From a virus, in IMG/VR virus record IMGVR_UViG_3300028663_000009, positions 1-24,091 of that record: a stretch of DNA of 24,091 nucleotides; one strand, 5' to 3'. Shown in pieces: positions 3,824-22,700 of the stretch (its first letter is position 1; every line of letters begins with the position of its first letter). The notes below the pieces were generated by a model. The model had not been told where the DNA came from. It searched no databases and saw nothing but the letters and a program-made list of their open reading frames with translations. The translations under genes and the position numbers were made by a program.

Positions 3824-4100
3824 CGGACTCGAGAGACCGCCATCGTGAACGCACGAAGAGCGCGCGGCGGTCGACGCTGTCCGGGCTGTGGCCGCTCGTT
3901 TGAGATGGCCACTCGAGTGGACGTCCACCATCGCGACCAGGACGAACGGAACGGTCATCCGTCGAACCTCCGGAAGCGCTGCGAGAAGTGCCATCTCGAG
4001 GGCGAGCACGATCGCCCCGACGACGTCGAAGTCGAAGACCCCGTCCGGACTCTCTCGACGAGGACCTCGCGGCGTGAGCCGGAGCGGACCGCCGCGATGA
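3820..4100 (+). CDS. HNH endonuclease (packaging-associated position); 3' end either 4100 or 4141
   Basis: RCPGCG...VDVHHRDQDERNGHPSNLRKRCEKCH: CxxC + HH...N...N...CxxCH signature; lies immediately before terS. Confidence 0.85.
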
Positions 4101-4137: not shown

Positions 4138-4769
4138 ATGACAGACAACGAAGACCTCGAGAGTACGAGATCTCGAGCGACCCACTCGAGATGAGAGTGG
4201 CCATGCGATCCATCCGGAACGAGGCCACCGTATCTGCGGCGCCGTCAAGTCGGACCGGACGACCCCGACCGAGCACGGCCGCGAACGCGACGACTCCCCT
4301 ACTGCACTGCCTGCTGGCGGCCGGCGTGGGATGGACCGATCCATCGGAAGGCACCTGCAGTAAACATCCAGTGACGACAACAGTGGGGCGAGTCCAACCC
4401 AAACCACAGCACGGTGGCTACTCCGAGTTCCAGGACTTCATGCAGGAGGGCCTGACCGAGGACGAGGCCGCGGCAATCGAGGCGCTGGACCTCGAGGAGC
4501 ACGGCGACGACTTCGCGGCGGACGTCGTCAAGGAAGCGTACGCGAAGTACCTTCGGACGGCTGACGATCGCTTCCTCCGCGAGGCCCGTCAGTGGGCCGC
4601 GGACTTCGGCGTGATCGAGAAGCCCGCCGACAAGCTCGAGGCGACGGTCGATGCCGATGTCGACCAGACGACCACGCAGGAACTCGGCGAGGACGAGAAA
4701 GAGATCGCTCGAGAGCTGATCCGGCAGAAACAGCAGCACTCTGCAGGAGGCGACGATACCGATGAGTAG
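4138..4769 (+). CDS. terS: Terminase small subunit, several indels in the 5' half
   Basis: Fragments HRICGAVKSDR and GWTDPSEGTCSKH...HGGYSEF match the 'ICGAK...GWGT...G.C..HGG...HG.YS' type of TerS; the gene overlaps the start of terL. Confidence 0.7.
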
Positions 4770-6394
4770 CCTCCTCGACGCCGACGACGTCGACGGCAGC
4801 GCCGAGCAACTCCTCGAGCTCGTCTCCGACCCGGAGACCAAACGTGATCTCCTCAACCCGTTCGAGACGGGCGACTGGATCACGTACGCGAACGAGCTCA
4901 CTCGGAACTACATGGCCGAGGAGATGGAGGACGACCAGTACTACCTCCTCGGCGACCATCACGAGCGCTGGCTCGAGGGCTTCGATGGCGGCGATCGCGT
5001 CCTGCTCTGTCATCGCGACGGGCTGAAGACGACGATCACGCTGGCGTACCTCATCGCCTCGCTCGAGTACAAGGACGGCTTCCGAGCGGTCTGGGCGATG
5101 AACAACCAGGGCTCGGTCAAGAAGAAAGCCGACACCGAGTTCTGGAAGTTCGTCGAACGCAACGAGTGGCTGACGAACCTGAACGGGCCGCGAAAGAAGG
5201 ACACGATCGAGGCGAAGGTGGGCCCACGGTTCGATGCTCAACGCCGGCTGGCTCTTCGGCGGGATCGAGGGCGATCGCGCCCACCTACTCGTTCTGGACG
5301 ACATCATCAAGGAGAAGGAGACGGGGACACCGAGGACGTTCTCGACTGGATCCAGGCCGTCTCCGTCCCGATGGTCAAGGAGGGTGGTCGGACCGTCATG
5401 ATCGGGACCGGAAGCGACCGGCCGATATCTACAACGACTATCGGTCGCTCGAGGGCTACGAGTTCGACGAGTATCCCGCGATCCTCGACTTCTGGGATCA
5501 GCAGTTCGGCGCCGACGACGATTGGCAGGATCGCCGGCCTGATCCCGAGCTCTACACCGAGGTCGCTGATCCGTGGAACGAAGGCGAGACACTCCAGGTA
5601 CTCTGGCCCGAGGCTCGAGGCCCACAGTGGCTCGAGAACAAACGGTCGCAGATGGCCGACCACCGCTTCTGGCGAGAGTACTGCCTCGTCATCATGGGCT
5701 CGAGCGGGAACCTGATCGAGGCGACCGACGTTCGGAAGCCGGCCGCGGAGGGCGGCTGCTCGATCGACGATCGTGACCCGCCGCCGAAGTACCGCGCTGG
5801 TCCGGGCGAGGCGATCATCCTGGGCCACGACCCAGCGAACTCGCCGACCGGCGACGACGCTGCCTTCTCGGTCTGGCTCCTGCAGCGCGACGGTCGACGT
5901 CGTCTTCTGGACGCCCACGCCGAGGCGGGGATGAAACCCAGCGAGGTGAAGAACCAACTCCTCGAGTTCGACCGGCGGTACGACCCCGCGCTGATCGTGA
6001 TCGAGGATAACGGGATGCAGTCCTACGTCGCCGAGGACGCGATCGAGTTCGACGCCCAACTGGCCGCGAAGGTGACCGGGCTGACGACATCCGGGCAGAA
6101 ACACAGCTGGGAGAACGGCATCCCGCGCATCCGGACGCTCGTCGATAACGGCTACATCCTCTTCCACCGCGGCCACCGGCCGACCGAGGACTTCATCACC
6201 GCGATGCAGTCCCTCGAGCGTCGCGACGGGAAGCTCCACGGTCACACGCCGGACCTCATCGCGTCGTGGTACATGGCCGAGAAGGGTTCCGGAAACTCGA
6301 GTCGATGGGCGCGCTCGACGACGTCGACGATCGCGACGCCGGCGACGAAGATGAGGGCGGCTCGGACGGTGGCAGCGGCGTCAGTTACCTCTAA
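4762..6394 (+). CDS. terL: Terminase large subunit, at least 4 indels
   Basis: Walker A-like LLCHRDGLKTT, Walker B HLLVLDDII (~5280-5310), coupling motif VMIGT, RNase H-like nuclease ILGHDPA...DDAA, VIEDNGMQ, TPDLIASWYMA; acidic tail ends GSGVSYL* at 6394. Confidence 0.92.
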
Positions 6395-6409
6395 CTCACC
6401 AGACAAAAC

Positions 6410-6809
6410 ATGAAGGAGATAATACCGAAGACAGTCAGACCAAAGAGCATCGACACCGACCAACTCATTGATCGACTCGATGAACTGGGTAATGTAGCCG
6501 AAGAACTCGAGGATATCAACCACGCGATCCGGGACCTCACAGACCGGGTTGAACGCGTTGAAGACGAAGCTGGGATCGATCACCAGCAACGAGCTCGACG
6601 AGCTGGCGAAAGAGACAGCGAACTCGATTGGCGAACAGCTTCTTCCATCGGAACCAGATGAGCCGCCGACTATCAGTATTCGGAACACACTCTACTCGAG
6701 CGATTTCACCCTGATTGGCCGGGACTGGGACACATTCGAACTCGAGGGTGTTGAGAGCGAGCCGGACATCCATCTCAAGCTGACCCAGCCACGAACTGAC
6801 GATGAGTAG
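6410..6809 (+). CDS. Hypothetical protein with an N-terminal coiled coil, inserted between terL and portal, 1 indel (~6570)
   Basis: LIDRLDELGNVAEELEDINHAIRDLTDRVERVE heptads joined to ITSNELDELAKE...TQPRTDDE*; lower GC than the flanks. Confidence 0.6.
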
Positions 6810-6980
6810 CTTTCAGTACCTCGGCATGGACATGGATGTCTGGGACTTCAAGACTACGGCAATTTCCTGATGGTTATTGGAAAGGTTGACGACCGGGTTG
6901 TCTCGTTCGAATGCCGGCACGGCCCAAATTTCCTTGACGGACTCCCCCCACACCGAGGAGGGTTCGGTAGCGATGAGTAA
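6802..6980 (+). CDS. Small hypothetical protein (~59 aa), 1 indel (~6850)
   Basis: MSSFQYLGMDMDVWDF/DYGNFLMVIGKVDDRVVSFECRHGPNFLDGLPPHRGGFGSDE*; overlaps both neighbours by 8 nt, as expected for translational coupling. Confidence 0.4.
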
Positions 6981-8862
6981 CTCCGAAGACGACCAATCGT
7001 CCGAGATCTCACTTTCAGTATCGACCCTCGGCAACGGGGAGACGATGGAGAAGGCCCGCGAGACGACGCAACTCGATGAGCGCCGGATCGCGATCGACGC
7101 CGGCCTCGGGATCCAGCCGCCGTACAACCCGGAGACGCTGGCTGCCTTCCAAGAGATCAACGAGACCCACCAGGCTTGCGTTCGGAAGAAGTCTCGGTAC
7201 GAGGTCGGCTATGGCTTCGATATCGTGCCCCACCCGCAGGCAGATGACCCGGATCCAGATGGCGAGGATCACGATGCCGTCGAGACGCTCTGGCACGGAG
7301 CCACCTCGAGCTGGCAGATCGGGCCCCAGGGGACAGCCGCATCGACGCCGGAGGAAGTCCTCGAACTCGCTCGACAGGACTACCACGGGGTCGGCTGGGC
7401 TGCACTCGAGATCCTCGCCGAGGGCGACGGCACGCCGATCGGGTTGGCACACGTCCCGGCAACGACGGTCCGGGTGCGGAAGACGACGAAGAAGATCGAG
7501 ACCGAGGACGGGGAAGAGAAGGAGGTCATCCAGAGCGGCCACGGCTACCTCCAAGTCCGCCAGGGCCGCCGACGCTACTTCGGTGAGGCTGGCGACCGCT
7601 ACGGCGACGATCCGATCTTCGTCGACAGGGAGACCGGGAAGACTGCCTCGAGCGCAAAAGAACTCAAGAACGATCCCGCGAATGAACTCATCTTCATCCC
7701 GAACCCGTCGCCGCTGTCGCTGTACTACGGGATCCCCGACTGGGTCGCGGCCATGCAGACGATGGGGGCCGACCAGGCGGCGAAGGAGTGGAACCACGAC
7801 CTCTTCGACCACCACGGCATCCCCTACTACGTCGTGAAGGTCACAGGTGGGACGCTCACGGAGGACTCGAAGGACGAACTCCGGGACCTGATGGACAACC
7901 TGAAGGGAACCCGCTACCGGACGGCGATCCTCGAGGTCGAGGAGTTCGAGCAGAAAACGGACCTGAACGACGAGGACGGCAACGACGTCGAGATCGAACT
8001 GGAGCCGGTCGGCTCTCGCGACGATCTCGACATGGAGTTCCAGAAGTTCCGTGAACGCAACGAACACGAGATCGCGAAGGTTCACGAGGTGCCGCCGATC
8101 CTGATCAACGTCACGGACACCTCGAACCGGTCGAACTCGAAAGAGCAGGTCCGCGAGTTCGCCGAGGACGTCATCGCACCCGAGCAGAAAAAGTTCGAGG
8201 CCCGTCTCTACAAGATCCTCCACCAGACCGCACTCGGCGTCGACGACTGGACGATCCAGTTCGAACTCCGTGGCGCTGACCGACCCGAGAAGAACGCTCG
8301 AGTGGCCCGGAACCGCGTCGACGCTGCGGGCCGGGCGGTCACGATCGACGAGGCTCGAGAGGCCGCTGGCTGGGATCCGCTGCCCGACGACCATCCCACT
8401 GACGGCAACACCCTGCTCGCGGAACCCGGCGGCCGTCAGGGGCCGCCTGGGGTAGACGAACCATCGCTCGAGGACCAACTCCCGCCAGAGGAGAACAAGA
8501 TCGGCGAGCGCGACTGGACCGATGTCGAGGCTGACCTGGACGTCGTCGACGGCGTCGCGACAAAGGACCCGCTCGAACAAACGCAGTTCAGCAGCTCGAA
8601 TCTGAATGAGGGGCTCTACGACTTTGGGGAGCGGGAACTCTATCTGTCGTTCAAGCGTGACGAGGGCCAGAACTCCCAGTACGTCTACGTTGATGTCCCG
8701 GCAGCCGTCTGGGAGGCGCTCACCAGCGCCTCGAGTCACGGCAGCTACCACTACGACAACATCCGCCTCGAGTACGGCTATCTCGAGATCACGAACAACC
8801 ACGATCGTCTCCCGGAGGGCAAGTCCCGGATCGGGGACATCCCCGACGACATCCCACTGTAG
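6973..8862 (+). CDS. Portal protein with a C-terminal KTSC-like domain
   Basis: Position after terL; portal motifs YYGIPDW..A, NHDLFDHHGIP, EHEIAKVHEVPPILI, IAPEQKKFEARL, TIDEARE. ATG 6973 preferred over TTG 6877. KTSC-like segment at ~8584-8781. Confidence 0.9.
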   Translation: MSNSEDDQSSEISLSVSTLGNGETMEKARETTQLDERRIAIDAGLGIQPPYNPETLAAFQEINETHQACVRKKSRYEVGYGFDIVPHPQADDPDPDGEDHDAVETLWHGATSSWQIGPQGTAASTPEEVLELARQDYHGVGWAALEILAEGDGTPIGLAHVPATTVRVRKTTKKIETEDGEEKEVIQSGHGYLQVRQGRRRYFGEAGDRYGDDPIFVDRETGKTASSAKELKNDPANELIFIPNPSPLSLYYGIPDWVAAMQTMGADQAAKEWNHDLFDHHGIPYYVVKVTGGTLTEDSKDELRDLMDNLKGTRYRTAILEVEEFEQKTDLNDEDGNDVEIELEPVGSRDDLDMEFQKFRERNEHEIAKVHEVPPILINVTDTSNRSNSKEQVREFAEDVIAPEQKKFEARLYKILHQTALGVDDWTIQFELRGADRPEKNARVARNRVDAAGRAVTIDEAREAAGWDPLPDDHPTDGNTLLAEPGGRQGPPGVDEPSLEDQLPPEENKIGERDWTDVEADLDVVDGVATKDPLEQTQFSSSNLNEGLYDFGERELYLSFKRDEGQNSQYVYVDVPAAVWEALTSASSHGSYHYDNIRLEYGYLEITNNHDRLPEGKSRIGDIPDDIPL

Positions 8863-8953
8863 CAGCTGACGCGAACTGCTGATGCCGATGACCGTGAGCA
8901 CGGGAGCTCCCCGACTCCCCGTGCGAGCGAGGCCCGACCGGGACATTCTCACG

Positions 8954-9067
8954 ATGACCAACAGCGACAAACAGCGGGCGAAGCGTGGCGTCCTCTCCAC
9001 CGGTCGAGCCCGGAAACTCGAGGACGCCGACGCGGACGCCGACGACGATGACGAACAGGAGGACTGA
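8954..9067 (+). CDS. Tiny bipolar peptide (basic N-half, acidic C-half); start could be 8882
   Basis: MTNSDKQRAKRGVLSTGRARKLEDADADADDDDEQED*; stop lies 3 nt before the protease ATG. Confidence 0.4.
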   Translation: MTNSDKQRAKRGVLSTGRARKLEDADADADDDDEQED

Positions 9068-9070
9068 CAC

Positions 9071-10826
9071 ATGACGGACAAGAAGGACGAACAGCTCACC
9101 AAGCGCGTCGACTTCGTCGCGAAGGACGACGACGAGCAGATCGCCACCGGCATCGTGATGGTGCCGGACAAGGTCGACCTGCAGTTCGACTTCGCCCGCG
9201 AGGACACCATTCGCGGGTTCGCCGACCAGTTCGGCGACTTCATGGAGGTCGGGCAGGCCGACGGCGGCCTCATGCACGCCGTCTGGCCCTCCGACTGGAT
9301 GGAACTCGAGCGGAACGAGGTCCTCGACGAAGCGACCGAGATCGGCGGCAAGGAGGCCCCGGCCGGCGCGTGGATCCAGTCGTGGAAGTTCAACGACGAC
9401 GACCTCTGGCAACTCGTCAAGGACGACATCCTCGGGGCGTTCTCCATCGGCGCGATCGCGGTTCAGTGGGGCGGCCCGTACGAGCAAGAGGAGCTCGAGG
9501 ACGTCGACGTCCCCGACGAGATCGATGAAGAGGAACTCGTCTGGGAATTGGCCGGCGGCACCATCCGCGAGGTCTCGAGCGTCGACATCCCTGCCGTCCC
9601 CGACGCGCAAGTCCTCGAGACGAAGGCTGAGGCCGAGAAGCGGCAGCCGATCACCTCGGCAACCGCGATGGGTTCGTCGAGGAAGCCCTCGAACGCAATC
9701 CAGACTGGTCGGAAGACGACGCCGATCAGCTCTGGGAGACCCTCAACAGTGCGATCGACGTTGAGGGGTCGGGCGAGCCAGGGAAGCAGTCCTTTTCGAG
9801 CGGATCGGGAAGGCTGCTTTCAACGCCTTCCCAGGCGCCGGGTCCGATGACGACACTCCGACGAAGACGTCCGAGGCCCCGGACCACGGTCGCGGCGCCG
9901 AGAAAGATGCAGACGACTTCGAGGCAGATGTCTTCCGCGTCACCGCTCCCGAGGACGAGGCCGAAAACTACGAGGACGAGGTCCTTGGGATCGGCGTCGA
10001 CTTCCCAAAGAGCGACGTGTACGTCGACTGGCGGAACGAAGTCTTCCCAGATCAGTTGGACGAGCCACACGTCAGCATCTACGGAAGTGTTAGCGACCTC
10101 GAGCAAGCGACAGGGAACACCGTCGAGCAGATGGACACGCTGAACGCGAAGGCAGCGAAGACCATGTTTGGCGCGTCCGGTCTGCAGGTGAACCCGATCG
10201 CCAAAGAGGGCCGCACACTCTCGACCCGCAACCGCGATAACCTGTTCGCGGCGATCGACGCATCGGCGGACGTCCTCGAGGACGCCGGCGTCGATCACGG
10301 ATTACGCGCTTCACCGATCGCGAGGATACGTCCTTCGACCTCTCCGAGCACACCGCTCGAGACTGGCCGGATCCCGATGAGGACGAAGAGGAAGACAGCG
10401 CAGGGACGGACGGACCGCCTTTTGAATCCGCTGCCGGCGGCGAGACGCCGGACGACACAGACTCTACTGACATGACTAACGACGACAACCCGATGGCCGA
10501 CGCTCCTGAATGGGCGAAGGCTCTCAACGACCGTATCGACGACCTCGTGAGCGAGGAGAAAGACGCCGGCGCCGGCGACGCCCCGATGGCTGATGCCCCC
10601 GAGTGGGCGAAGAACCTCGACGAACGCATCAACGAGATCGAGGAGAAGGCGCTCGACGACGACGGCGAAGACAAGACCCGAGTGGGCGAAGAGCCTCGAG
10701 GCGCGCATCGACGCGATCTCGAAGCAGACCGGTACCGACTCGCAGCAGATCGGGAAGGTCGAGAGCGAAGAGAGCGAGAAGGGCGGCGGCTTCACGCTGG
10801 ACCCGCGGAAGGCTCGAGGTAACTAA
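9071..10826 (+). CDS. Prohead protease (XkdF-like) fused to a scaffold region, at least 4 indels
   Basis: KDDDEQIATGIVMVPDKVDLQ...GLMH...PAGAWIQSWKF...LWQLVK...GAFSIG...EVSSVDIPAVPDA is the XkdF-type pattern. An acidic reading frame can be followed across shifts (~9640, ~9900, ~10305, ~10678) without stops to ...FTLDPRKARGN* at 10826. Confidence 0.8.
10490..10720 (+). repeat. Three PEWAK-L-RI repeats in the scaffold C-terminus
   Basis: PMADAPEWAKALNDRID (10490), PMADAPEWAKNLDERIN (10583), PEWAKSLEARID (~10678); the DNA core GA(A/G)TGGGCGAAG occurs three times. Confidence 0.85.
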
Positions 10827-10828
10827 CG

Positions 10829-11773
10829 ATGACGATTCACGCTACCCGAACGCAGAACGAGAAGGCAGTCGAAAAGCTCGACACGACCGACATGGCCGGT
10901 GGCGTCCTGCCGCGGGATCTCTTCGAGGACTGGTACCAGAAGGTCGTCGACTCGGCGACCATGCTCGAGGGGCCCGCACGGAGGACCTCCCGCGGCCGCA
11001 GATGGACCTGCCCGCATCAGCGTCGGCGAGCGCATGCGACGCGGCGCCGACGAAAACGAGGGTGACAGCGGCTCGGGAGAAGTCAACACCGACGCCGTCA
11101 GCCTCGACGTCGAGAAGGGGACGCTCGCGTACGACCCTCTCGAGAGTCCGTCGACGACACGCTCGACAACGTCGACGAGATCGTCCTGGACATGCTGGCC
11201 CGACAGTTCGCAGTCGACACGCAGGACCTCGGGATCAACGGTGACGAGTCCAGCGGGGACAACTTCCTCAACCAGAACGACGGCTGGCTGAAGATCCTCT
11301 CGAACTCCACCGACACCAGCACGTACGACCACACGGACGACAACGGCAACGCCCAGCCGGTCGACACGTCGCTGTTCGACCAGGCGATCCAGGCGATGCC
11401 GAACAAGTACCTGCGCTCGGATCGGTTCGAGCCCGTGGTCTACATGAACGAGAACAAGGTCCAGCAGTACCGGATGGCGCTGACCGAGCGTGAGGATCCG
11501 CTGGGCTCGGCCGTCATCTTCGGCGACGAGGACATTACGCCGTTCTCGTACGACGTCGTCGGCGTCGCTGCGTGGCCCGAGGACACGGCCGTCTTCACGC
11601 ACCCGCAGAACTTCGTCTACGCCCTCTACGACGAGGTCGAGATTCGCGTCCTCACCGAGACGGACAAGGTCGCCGAGAACGACCTCTTCGCTCGCTACTT
11701 CATGCGGGTTCGCGACGACTTCGCGATCGAGGACGAAGAGGCAGCGGTCCACGTCTCGGGAATCGAGGTCTAA
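10829..11773 (+). CDS. Major capsid protein (HK97 fold, phiCh1/phiH1-like), about 3 indels
   Basis: GGVLPRDLF, RISVGERMRR, EKGTLAYDL, DLGINGDE, NQNDGW, PLGSAVIFG...ITPF, THPQNFVYALY, TDKVAENDLFARYFMRVRDDFAIE closely track my recollection of the phiCh1 capsid protein. Confidence 0.9.
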
Positions 11774-11785
11774 GGAGGGCCGTAG

Positions 11786-12157
11786 ATGACAACTACCAAC
11801 GAAAAAATCCGCCGGCGGTACGAGAACGGGGAGACGCTCAACGACGGCGCACCCGGCAACGTGGCGACCGACGCACCCGCCAACGCGGCGGACACGGTCG
11901 TCGCCGAAGACGCCGACGTGCAGGCCGTCACCGCCGACGGGACGAACACGGTCGACCTCTCGAACGCCGCAGCGGAAGGACGCCAGGTCACCGTCGTTCA
12001 CAACGGCGGGGCCAACACGCCGACGCTGTCGTTCACCGACGCGGACTTCGTCGGAACCGGACCGGCTAACATGACCGCAGCGGGCGCAACGGCGACCGTC
12101 CGCAATATCGACGGGACGGCCAGCGGCTGGGTCGTCGTCGCCACCGGGAGTGCCTAA
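11786..12157 (+). CDS. Putative capsid decoration/accessory protein (Ala/Thr/Gly-rich beta domain)
   Basis: Directly follows the MCP with an RBS-like GGAGG (11775); TNTVDLSNAAAEGRQVTVVHNGG...GWVVV beta pattern. Confidence 0.6.
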   Translation: MTTTNEKIRRRYENGETLNDGAPGNVATDAPANAADTVVAEDADVQAVTADGTNTVDLSNAAAEGRQVTVVHNGGANTPTLSFTDADFVGTGPANMTAAGATATVRNIDGTASGWVVVATGSA

Positions 12158-19789: not shown

Positions 19790-22700
19790 TGGCCTGGGAA
19801 CTCCTCGAGACGGTCTCCGACTCGAATACTGTCCGCGATGCTGAAATCAGTCCAGATGGAGAGTGGCTTGTTTTGGCACCGATGGTAACGAACTCGTCAT
19901 CTACTCTACCGGGGACTGGGTTCACCAACACACCTACAGTATACGGGGAACGGCTTACGGAATATCGATCAGTTCCGATTCGAGCCAGATTGCCGTTGCC
20001 TCTGGCGCAATCACCTCTGGAGATTTCGAGGTCTATGAATTGGGAGGGGTGGACAGAGATCTACTCCGAGTCTACGAGCCTCGGCCGCTGGATGTTGACT
20101 TCAGCCCGAATGGGGATTGGGCTGCTTATGTCTACGGTAGCGGGACTGAAGTTCTGAATACGAGCGACTGGAGCAACGTCACAACCGTCACAACAGACAA
20201 TAGCAGAGGCGTTGGATTTAGTTCAGATAGTGGTTGGCTCGCGGTCGGGACAAACAATGATGAAACGCTGGTCTTCTCTACATCTGACTGGGCGGAGATT
20301 AACGACTCGCCGCTCACTGACCCTACTGATGCCGTTAAAGCAACCACGTTTGACCCTGCCGACGAGTATCTGGCTTCTGGGTCAGAGTCCAGTTCTAACC
20401 ATATTTACAACACGTCGGACTGGACAGAAAGCAGCGCCTCGCCGATCACCGACGCCTCGGGTCAAATCGAAGCCGTTGCTTTCGATGCAAACTCCCTCTG
20501 GTTCGCGTTTGCAAGCCGAGATCAAACAGGCCGTGTCTATTCGATTACCGACGGCTGGGCGTTTGAGACGACGCTTGATGACCCGACCGATTACGCGTGG
20601 GGTATCGACTTCCAAGATGAGTATCTTGCACTGGCTGCCGACACATCAGTCTATATTTACGACGTTCCCGAGCCGGACTTTACACCAACGAACGTCTCTG
20701 TCGACGCAACTCGAGACACTGAGATCGACCTCTCGTGGACCGTTACGGGCGGTGAAGATGAAGTCCGCGTCTACCGTGATTCCTCCCGGGCTCGATGTCT
20801 CCACTCTAAACCCGATCGCGACTCTCGCGACCGGAACGGAGTCGTACACCGATACGGGACTCGATAACGGGACGGACTACTACTACAAGATCGCCGCCTA
20901 TTCGTCCGATACCGAAGACGTTTCGGACGAGGTTTCAGGCCAGACGACGCTCCCGGATGTTACTAACGTCTCGGCGTCAGGTGGTTCACGAACCGTTGAT
21001 ATATCGTGGACTGCAAATCACAACACCGGCCAAACACGCGTCGAGATCCGCGAAGCTGGCGGTACGTGGACTCATTTGACGACCGTCGATTACACGACGA
21101 CCTCGGCATCAGTCGCCGGCCTCCTCGACGGCACCGACTACGAAGTTCTGGTCCGCGCTGAGACCACCGATGTCGATGGGAGTCGGGTCACGGACACGGC
21201 GACCACGACACTCCCACAGATCGGCACGTTCGAGATCGACGAGAGCGTCCGAGACGATCTCACTGCCGACTGGAGCGATCTCCTGAACACTGGCCAGTAC
21301 CGACTCCGATGGAAGGATGCTGATGCCTCGAGCTTTGATGCGGCAGATGAAGCTGTGGTTGCTCACGACGCTGCCACGCTCGAGTATGCGATTTCCGGGT
21401 TGCTCGACGGCACTGACTATGACGTCAAACTCCGGACAGAAACGGACGATGTCGCCGGCGACTGGCACCGAGAGACAGCCACGACGCTCCTCCCTGCTAT
21501 CGATGCGTTCTCTCTTGATTCAAGCGTCCAGGACGAGCTTATAGTCGGTGGCATCGACCCAGTAATTGATACCGGACAGTACCGGATTCGGTGGAAGCGG
21601 TCCGAGGACGGAACCTATGTCGCCGAGAACGAAACGACGCTCGCCCACGATGTGGATCCGCTTGAGTATACCATCTCGCCGGTCCTCGATGGCGAGAAGT
21701 ACGATGTAGGGATCCAACCGGAGACTGACGATGCCACCGGCGACTGGCACACCGCCACGGAGATCACCAAACTCGTCTCGGCGGACGGGCTCGCGTTTTC
21801 GAACGTGACTGACCGCGGGCTTACGCTCTCGTGGACGGACAACTCCGGCTTCGACGGCAGTTATCAGGTCTGGCGGCGGCGAACCGACTACGAGTACGAC
21901 GATCCGAAGGGGAGTTGATCGCGACGCTTGCCGACACGGCCACGGAGTTCGTCGAAGAGACGACGCTCCATCCCGGAGAGAGTACGCGTACACCGTCCGG
22001 GCGACGACCCAGTACGTCCACGCTGACAGTAGTGAGGCGACGGCTACCACCGACAGCATCGGCCTCGAGCAGCGAGCCGTCCCGCCGCGAGGCTGGTATG
22101 TCGAGGTGGATCACCCAAGCGGGACGGTTCTCCGACCGTCGGTCCTCGACGGTCCCGAACGTCGACCACGGGCGAACGACCAGCCGCGCGTCCGGATTCC
22201 GGTCCCAAAACCGATCGCTGGTTCTCCGAGGCCCTCGAGGACGAGACGACGATGCGCGTCTGGGTTGACGGCAATCGCCTTCCGATCGGTGTCTTCAAGC
22301 GCGCCGAGCGCCAGTCCGGCCAGGCCGTCCTGGTCGGCATCGGCGGCACCGAACTCGAGACGCGCGTCGAGCACGAGGTCGATCAGCAGGCGACCCACGA
22401 ACTCGTCGAGGAGCTCGTCTCAGCCAACACCGACCTGACGCCGAACGTCGACGCGCCCGAGAGCACGCTCCAGGAGGGCGTCGAGATGCTCGCAGTTGAC
22501 ACGACGTCTGAGATCCTCGGTGCGATCGAGGAGATTGACGAGACGACACCGGCGACGGTCGAAAACGATTCAATCAAGCTCTACCAGACGGCCTGGACTA
22601 CCGAAGCGGAGGACGCGACAGCCGATAGTAGCACGATCTTTGACCCCTCTACGCACGACCCAGACGGCGAGTTCTCCGGTGGTGATGGTCTGCGACTTAA

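Follow-up and report, generated by a model that had tools for sequence, protein, structure and literature searches.

A KTSC domain fused in frame to the portal protein of a haloarchaeal provirus and its relatives

Why does the portal gene of a haloarchaeal virus continue into a KTSC domain, and is this fusion genuine? The present study addressed these questions in the IMG/VR virus record IMGVR_UViG_3300028663_000009. The whole record, 24,091 base pairs, was analyzed and is hereafter called the window. It is listed as a provirus in IMG/VR, with a GC content of ~64 % and a CheckV completeness estimate of 59 %, and is an integrated virus of a salt-loving archaeon. The portal gene sits between the large terminase gene and the protease and capsid genes. 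An initial annotation of this DNA had proposed that the portal frame runs without a stop into a KTSC-like domain and that the fusion is probably real. We found that the fusion is real and natural and is under selection. It is shared by the 120 best database clusters and by the isolates BJ1 and CGphi46, and the junction is clean in comparison with the near-identical contig L021.

Layout and conservation of the portal-KTSC protein

The reading frame is open on the + strand from a TTG at 6877 to the stop codon at 8860-8862. Because homologues begin at Met33 of this frame (ATG at 6973), the gene start was set at 6973. The features of the gene are as follows, with amino acid (aa) positions counted along the open frame.

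6973-8862 (+): portal-KTSC gene, 629 aa plus stop (Pfam matches and homologue starts)
7072-8382 (+): portal fold of the HK97/gene transfer agent (GTA) type (Phage_portal match at 7378-8367; AlphaFold model and structure matches)
8383-8481 (+): variable acidic/Pro-rich linker, aa 503-535 (weak conservation, indels, and a predicted local distance difference test [pLDDT] score <50)
8482-8517 (+): conserved motif PPxENKIGERDW, aa 536-547, before the KTSC domain (homologue conservation; pLDDT ~90 in the full-length model)
8590-8775 (+): KTSC domain, aa 572-633 (PF13619; fold matches to 4rgi and 7x8c, Z 14; profile match to KTSC chains in the PDB)
8776-8859 (+): conserved acidic C-terminal tail, Y.EITN.H.RLPEG...DIPDDIP (homologue conservation)
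8819-8832 (+): window-specific compensated -2/-1 deletions (comparison with L021 and the family consensus)

Both domains were detected in this single frame above their curated Pfam cut-offs. Phage_portal (PF04860, HK97 type) matched aa 168-497 with an E value of 9.6e-27 and 94.4 bits (cut-off, 39.1), and KTSC (PF13619) matched aa 572-633, corresponding to 8590-8775 of the window, with an E value of 1.9e-12 and 47.1 bits (cut-off, 25). When the C-terminal 110 aa were searched alone, KTSC was found with an E value of 1e-13 and 51.2 bits, and a six-frame search placed it at identical coordinates with 52 bits. PHROGs assigned the portal body to phrog_12 (portal; E 6e-49), while the C-terminus fell into two families without a known function. 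The bounds first proposed for the KTSC domain, 8584-8781, lie within 6 nucleotides (nt) of the Pfam bounds on each side.

A full-length AlphaFold model, built on 123 homologues, had a mean pLDDT of 78. The portal fold occupies model residues ~34-470 and ends at ~470-485. It matched the GTA portal 6te8 (Z 22.7 over 334 aa), the HK97 portal 8cez (Z 19.2), and the portal of Haloferax tailed virus 1 (8qsy; Z 17.4), and the alignments to these solved portals reach the C-terminal ends of their chains. Past the portal fold, the model contains two short terminal helices, a low-confidence stretch, and then a confidently modelled module. The C-terminal 137 aa, modelled separately with AlphaFold, had a pLDDT of 85. 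The KTSC model superposed on the whole chain of two KTSC crystal structures, 4rgi (Z 14.0, root-mean-square deviation [rmsd] of 1.5 Å over 71 aa) and 7x8c (Z 13.8, rmsd of 1.1 Å). The in-frame fusion proposed in the initial annotation was, thus, borne out by the profiles as well as by the folds.

PF13619 and PF04860 occurred together in 120 of the 120 best database clusters, which come from many Halobacteria genera and metagenomes. The portal proteins of CGphi46 and BJ1 are each encoded by a single gene with the same architecture and are 70 and 51.5 % identical, respectively, to the window protein over about aa 40-660. When IMG/VR loci were collected with a stand-alone KTSC protein as the query, 12 of the 13 carried fused open reading frames (ORFs), eleven of which were 620-634 aa long and one of which (335 aa) was cut at the contig end. 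Judging from these sequences, the portal-KTSC fusion is the rule in the Graaviviridae-like lineage of haloarchaeal viruses.

Across the 123 homologues, the KTSC domain and tail are conserved as strongly as the portal core. Between the window and BJ1, they are 73 % identical, whereas the identity over the whole protein is 51.5 %. The linker region (aa ~500-560) is variable with indels, yet contains the almost invariant PPxENKIGERDW, in which P536, P537, and R545 do not vary among 20 diverse homologues and are at least 90 % conserved in the 123, while N540, K541, and E544 are almost constant in the 20. In the tail, Y635, E637, T639, and G648 are invariant among the 20 diverse homologues (Y635 and E637 in all 123), and H642, R644, L645, and P646 are nearly so. 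The hallmarks of KTSC (SS, YxY, VP, and AxSxG) are all present, as S573/S574, Y602, Y604, V607, P608, A618, S620, and G622, and are invariant or nearly invariant. The net charge per residue is -0.23 in the linker and -0.22 in the tail.

The junction itself was assessed in near-identical contigs. Four contigs that are 98-99 % identical to the window, namely, L021 and three others, have no indel between the portal and KTSC, and the three others encode the same 629-aa protein. Over 6973-8818, the window and L021 differ by three substitutions and no indel. The initial annotation regarded the portal gene as free of indels, and this holds up to 8818, a span that includes the linker and KTSC. It does not hold in the last 15 codons, where a compensated -2/-1 deletion pair is located at 8819 and 8832. 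The pair places four codons out of frame, resulting in KSRI for the PSPGS of the family consensus. The window reads ...LPEGKSRIGDIP... at this patch, whereas L021 and the family consensus read ...LPEGPSPGSGDIP.... The patch lies 3' of the KTSC domain, which is unaffected.

It was also suggested at the outset that the architecture may be new. This idea was not upheld because database entries are abundant and include the isolates BJ1 (ORF50) and CGphi46. These two isolates were sequenced years ago, and the architecture, which can be seen in public databases, is uncharacterized; our search of the published literature found no functional study of KTSC and no mention of a portal-KTSC protein.

Location and possible role of the KTSC module

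In solved HK97-type portals, the C-terminal crown faces the capsid interior, and the window portal is presumably a dodecamer. The initial annotation placed the C-terminus of this portal accordingly, and the placement agrees with the model, in which the appendage follows the last portal-fold helices. Because the crown of the dodecamer faces the capsid interior, the ~160-residue appendage should lie inside the head in twelve copies. A complex prediction for the portal body (model residues 24-470) and the C-terminal module (model residues 493-629), performed without controls, gave a score of 0.00, and nothing is drawn from this score.

We propose, with confidence that is evenly balanced, that KTSC is a portal-tethered nucleic-acid-binding accessory module inside the capsid that likely engages the genome end. 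Around the mouth of the channel, twelve such modules would be suspended from the portal within the head. They would hold or organize the genome end at the portal, either for its retention after packaging or for its positioning for ejection. The module may be the functional counterpart of a separate minor head protein of the MuF/SPP1-gp7 type, and also of the winged-helix domains that occupy this position in the fusions of another portal lineage. Genome binding gains indirect support from three observations: the distribution of MuF, the exchange of KTSC and winged-helix domains, and the presence of KTSC on the HerA translocase.

In the related myoviruses phiH and HRTV-DL1, the portals are 516-518 aa long without KTSC, and a MuF-type gene (PF04233) directly follows. 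In the window, CGphi46, and BJ1, KTSC is present and an XkdF-type protease follows the portal. A hidden Markov model (HMM) search with PF04233 gave matches in phiH and HRTV-DL1 and none in the window record, CGphi46, or BJ1, and a search of five further KTSC-bearing contigs found no MuF. SPP1 gp7 is a portal-bound, capsid-internal, DNA-binding protein that affects DNA delivery. Portal-MuF fusions exist elsewhere (an Atlas cluster), and head-internal modules have, thus, been attached to portal C-termini recurrently.

A second portal lineage includes the proteins P0241-P0358 of uncultured phages, the nearest isolates of which are the Nonlabens phages P12024S/L. A C-terminal winged-helix domain was found in 112 of the 120 listed relatives, as HTH_24, MarR_2, TrmB, or HTH_45 (e.g., P0246 and P0276). 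In two members of the same lineage, P0239 and P0240, KTSC occupies the place of the winged helix, and the portal bodies are collinear to aa 418/439. Some of the portal-winged-helix proteins of this type are labelled "MarR family transcriptional regulator" by JGI.

The KTSC profile also matched the C-terminus of HerA of Paenibacillus sp. 453MF (8wld, 8wiv, and 8wof) at aa 625-696 with an E value of 4e-18, and this C-terminus matched the KTSC fold with Z 10.7 at 26 % identity. The arm domain of SIR2-HerA contains a bona fide KTSC domain. The structural study described aa 576-696 as the "C-terminal arm domain", which winds around the adjacent RecA-like domain in trans and stabilizes the hexamer, and never named KTSC (PMC11472057).

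KTSC also occurs as a separate gene beside a portal candidate in one contig.

L004 (IMGVR_UViG_3300026124_000214), 4788-6988: stand-alone KTSC of 131 aa (Pfam E 1e-12) together with a 531-aa portal candidate

The stand-alone KTSC gene overlaps the stop of the large terminase gene (TerL) and the start of the 531-aa ORF. The 531-aa protein is probably a portal, as judged from its Atlas feature and structure matches, which place it among portals (feature score of 0.98, TM 0.58-0.72); a comparison of this ORF with the portal alignment by hhalign was uninformative (probability of 5.7 %). The tail of the L004 KTSC protein (DWPQQGRG...RRFV type) is common to the stand-alone haloarchaeal-type KTSC proteins P0134-P0141. 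A search for related loci revealed no relatives with P0192 in viral contigs, nor with P0140 in genome contigs.

A broader reading, which we advance tentatively, is that KTSC is a general accessory of ring-shaped dsDNA translocation machines, namely, portals and HerA-type pumps, and engages the DNA end at the ring mouth either as a fused domain or as the product of a neighboring gene. In haloarchaeal viruses, twelve copies would clamp the packaged genome, set up ejection, and replace MuF/gp7.

Several points weigh against nucleic acid binding at the portal. The fused module is acidic, with a net charge of -0.11 per residue and a K/R content of 5.4 %, whereas the corresponding values for stand-alone KTSC proteins are ~0 and 11.8 %. 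Its conserved basic residues are K563, R594, R630, and R644 alone. An acidic, K/R-poor module disfavors simple electrostatic DNA binding, although adaptation to a halophilic life confounds this comparison. The arm of HerA contacts a neighboring subunit and is not described as touching DNA (PMC11472057). Winged-helix domains can mediate protein contacts too, and the complementarity of MuF and KTSC comes from few, phylogenetically clustered genomes and fragments. No experiment showing nucleic acid binding by KTSC was found in the literature. The initial annotation had described KTSC domains as binders of single-stranded nucleic acids, and we found no basis for this specificity. The Pfam entry states that KTSC "could be" RNA-binding, and Aravind's group, without experiment, described separate genes for a "DNA-binding KTSC" that are coupled to HerA-like ATPases (PMC9503650).

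It is also possible, although in our estimate rather unlikely, that KTSC is a docking arm that binds protein. It would clamp neighboring portal subunits in high salt, or recruit the XkdF protease/scaffold or the capsid protein for procapsid nucleation. Within large assemblies, KTSC has been seen only as part of the HerA arm domain (aa 576-696), which contacts the neighboring subunit in trans and stabilizes the hexamer (PMC11472057), and the acidic surface of the portal module is atypical of a DNA binder. The conserved motif before KTSC, like the conserved tail, may function as a docking peptide. Fusions of KTSC to DnaJ and to ribbon-helix-helix (RHH) domains exist, and the former suggest protein-handling roles. 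However, the hallmarks SS, YxY, VP, and AxSxG are invariant with unrelated partners (portal, HerA, DnaJ, RHH, and stand-alone), and because they are invariant across these contexts, a common KTSC ligand fits better than many protein interfaces. Furthermore, the winged-helix swap and the RHH fusion point to DNA, and a flexible linker of variable length would be odd for a fixed clamp between subunits.

We consider it improbable that KTSC is a releasable or ejected cargo, or an adaptor for cargo. The prohead protease would cut the linker, or release would occur in another manner, and KTSC would enter the host with the DNA, where its target may, for example, be host RNA or translation; or else, as an adaptor, it would carry further cargo domains. 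Cargo domains are known to be carried by proteins of the MuF type. The gene for the prohead protease directly follows that for the portal, and one family member, P0095 (1012 aa), has ~400 extra residues past KTSC. KTSC has also been described on lysyl-tRNA synthetases and beside IF3 in jumbo phages (PMC7824862). However, a conserved cleavage-like site was not identified, and twelve portal-fixed copies cannot leave unless cut. In addition, a length of 664 aa is not exceeded by 119 of the 120 best clusters, which leaves room past KTSC for a short tail alone. The extension of P0095 had no Pfam match, and an Atlas search with its 373 residues gave weak leads (0.85; DraT 0.82). Since these leads are weak, we did not call the extension an ADP-ribosyltransferase.

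The main reading is further favored by the stand-alone KTSC gene of L004, the separate KTSC genes coupled to HerA-like ATPases, the RHH-KTSC fusion, and the occurrence of KTSC in virions. A KTSC protein, CBB_320, has been detected in jumbo-phage virions by mass spectrometry, with 4 peptides and 37 % coverage (PMC5259590). It is encoded by the Rak2-like Pectobacterium phage CBB (L003, 2447-2980) and adjoins IF3 and ClpS homologues; its own homologues are annotated as "DnaJ-like".

Neighboring genes and quality of the record

The genes on either side of the portal gene bear on how far the window sequence may be trusted.

4762-6413 (+): large terminase subunit, in overlapping frames 4762-5715 and 5166-6413 (Terminase_6C in 5166-6413)
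9071-10823 (+): XkdF-type prohead protease/scaffold, directly 3' of the portal (Peptidase_S78_2), broken by window-specific 1-nt indels
10826-11773 (+): major capsid protein homologue (identity with the CGphi46 virion structural protein, 58 %); one internal stretch is out of frame, and there is a stop

In the window, the genes for the terminase, protease/scaffold, and capsid protein, among others, are disrupted, whereas L021 has long open frames in their place. The terminase region of L021 (96 % identical) is one open frame of 559 codons. The protease/scaffold gene of the window passes through frames 2/1/2/3 in comparison with CGphi46 and is intact in L021, with 586 codons from stop to stop. 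Positions 6891-11811 of the window are 99.2-99.6 % identical to the contigs L020-L024, and the differences are mainly indels of 1-2 nt. In the comparison with L021 (99.6 % identical DNA over 4.8 kb), there are 4 substitutions and 12 indels, many of which are at short homopolymer runs. We also considered a decaying provirus. Decay is less likely than sequencing error because indels outnumber substitutions, homopolymer runs are affected, and the frames of L021 are intact. The record, therefore, appears to be an error-rich assembly.

The many 1-2 nt indels that break neighboring genes, together with the separate KTSC gene of L004, may raise the suspicion that a frameshift or missed stop joined the portal gene to a separate KTSC gene; however, we assign this a negligible probability and reject it because the same protein recurs in near-identical contigs of other samples, the L021 alignment is free of indels over 6973-8818, and the 120 best clusters, 12 of the 13 IMG/VR loci, BJ1, and CGphi46 are fused.

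The initial annotation assumed an HNH gene, and an HNH endonuclease motif of borderline score (21.2 bits; cut-off, 21.4) is present at 3878-3997 (+), just upstream of the terminase genes. This placement is as in HNH-dependent cos packaging systems. In the tail region, an ORF at 20212-21918 (+) encodes 568 aa and contains a fibronectin type III domain (E 5e-16); its product may be a fiber or receptor-binding protein.

Significance and comparison with known systems

The holding and release of the genome end at the portal are partly understood in tailed viruses and, to our knowledge, are essentially unstudied in archaeal viruses. The present results point to a whole family of haloarchaeal viruses with a small conserved domain on the inward end of the portal, two of which, BJ1 and CGphi46, are cultured isolates. 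The new elements of this study are the KTSC/winged-helix swap, the HMM-tested complementarity with MuF, the stand-alone KTSC beside a portal, and the identification of the HerA arm as KTSC. The occurrence of KTSC, MuF, and winged-helix modules as alternatives at one place offers a way to test head-internal modules. If genome-end binding is true, it would be the first function for the widespread, uncharacterized KTSC domain. Moreover, the portal KTSC is linked to the structurally solved arm domain of HerA, a component of a bacterial antiphage system.

The closest known systems are the Halorubrum viruses CGphi46 (YP_008126541) and BJ1 (ORF50, YP_919077) of the Graaviviridae, Kirjokansivirales, which share the portal, linker, KTSC domain, and tail with the window. 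The order of their genes, TerS-TerL-portal-XkdF protease-capsid protein, is likewise shared, and a MuF gene is absent. Matches to CGphi46, the recorded host of which is Halorubrum, were obtained in the same order for the portal (70 %), the protease, the capsid protein, and two other genes of the window; TerL of CGphi46 had no match in the window, a record that is ~59 % complete. The window does not differ from these viruses in kind, but is an uncultured provirus with a compensated indel patch in the tail. The records of CGphi46 and BJ1 annotate "portal protein" alone, with KTSC unmentioned.

The solved HK97-type portals (6te8, 8cez/8fql, and 8qsy) have the clip/stem/wing/crown fold in common with the window portal. 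In contrast, their chains (338-479 residues) end at the crown, with no KTSC or other folded domain beyond it.

The MuF genes of phiH (PhiH1_030) and HRTV-DL1 (ORF10) lie directly after the portal body, which is the position of KTSC in the window, and the two are distributed in a complementary manner. MuF and KTSC have no sequence or fold relation, and the comparison is functional alone. Whereas MuF forms a separate protein with few copies, KTSC is covalently attached and would be present in twelve.

The Nonlabens-type portals resemble the window portal in that a small domain of the nucleic-acid-binding type is fused behind the crown. However, they belong to another lineage, with 27 % identity over the last third only, and the appended fold differs; they are also uncharacterized.

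HerA, similar to the window portal, is a ring-forming machine around DNA and carries KTSC at its C-terminus. Unlike the portal, the carrier of KTSC in HerA is a hexameric ATPase, and the arm contacts the neighboring subunit.

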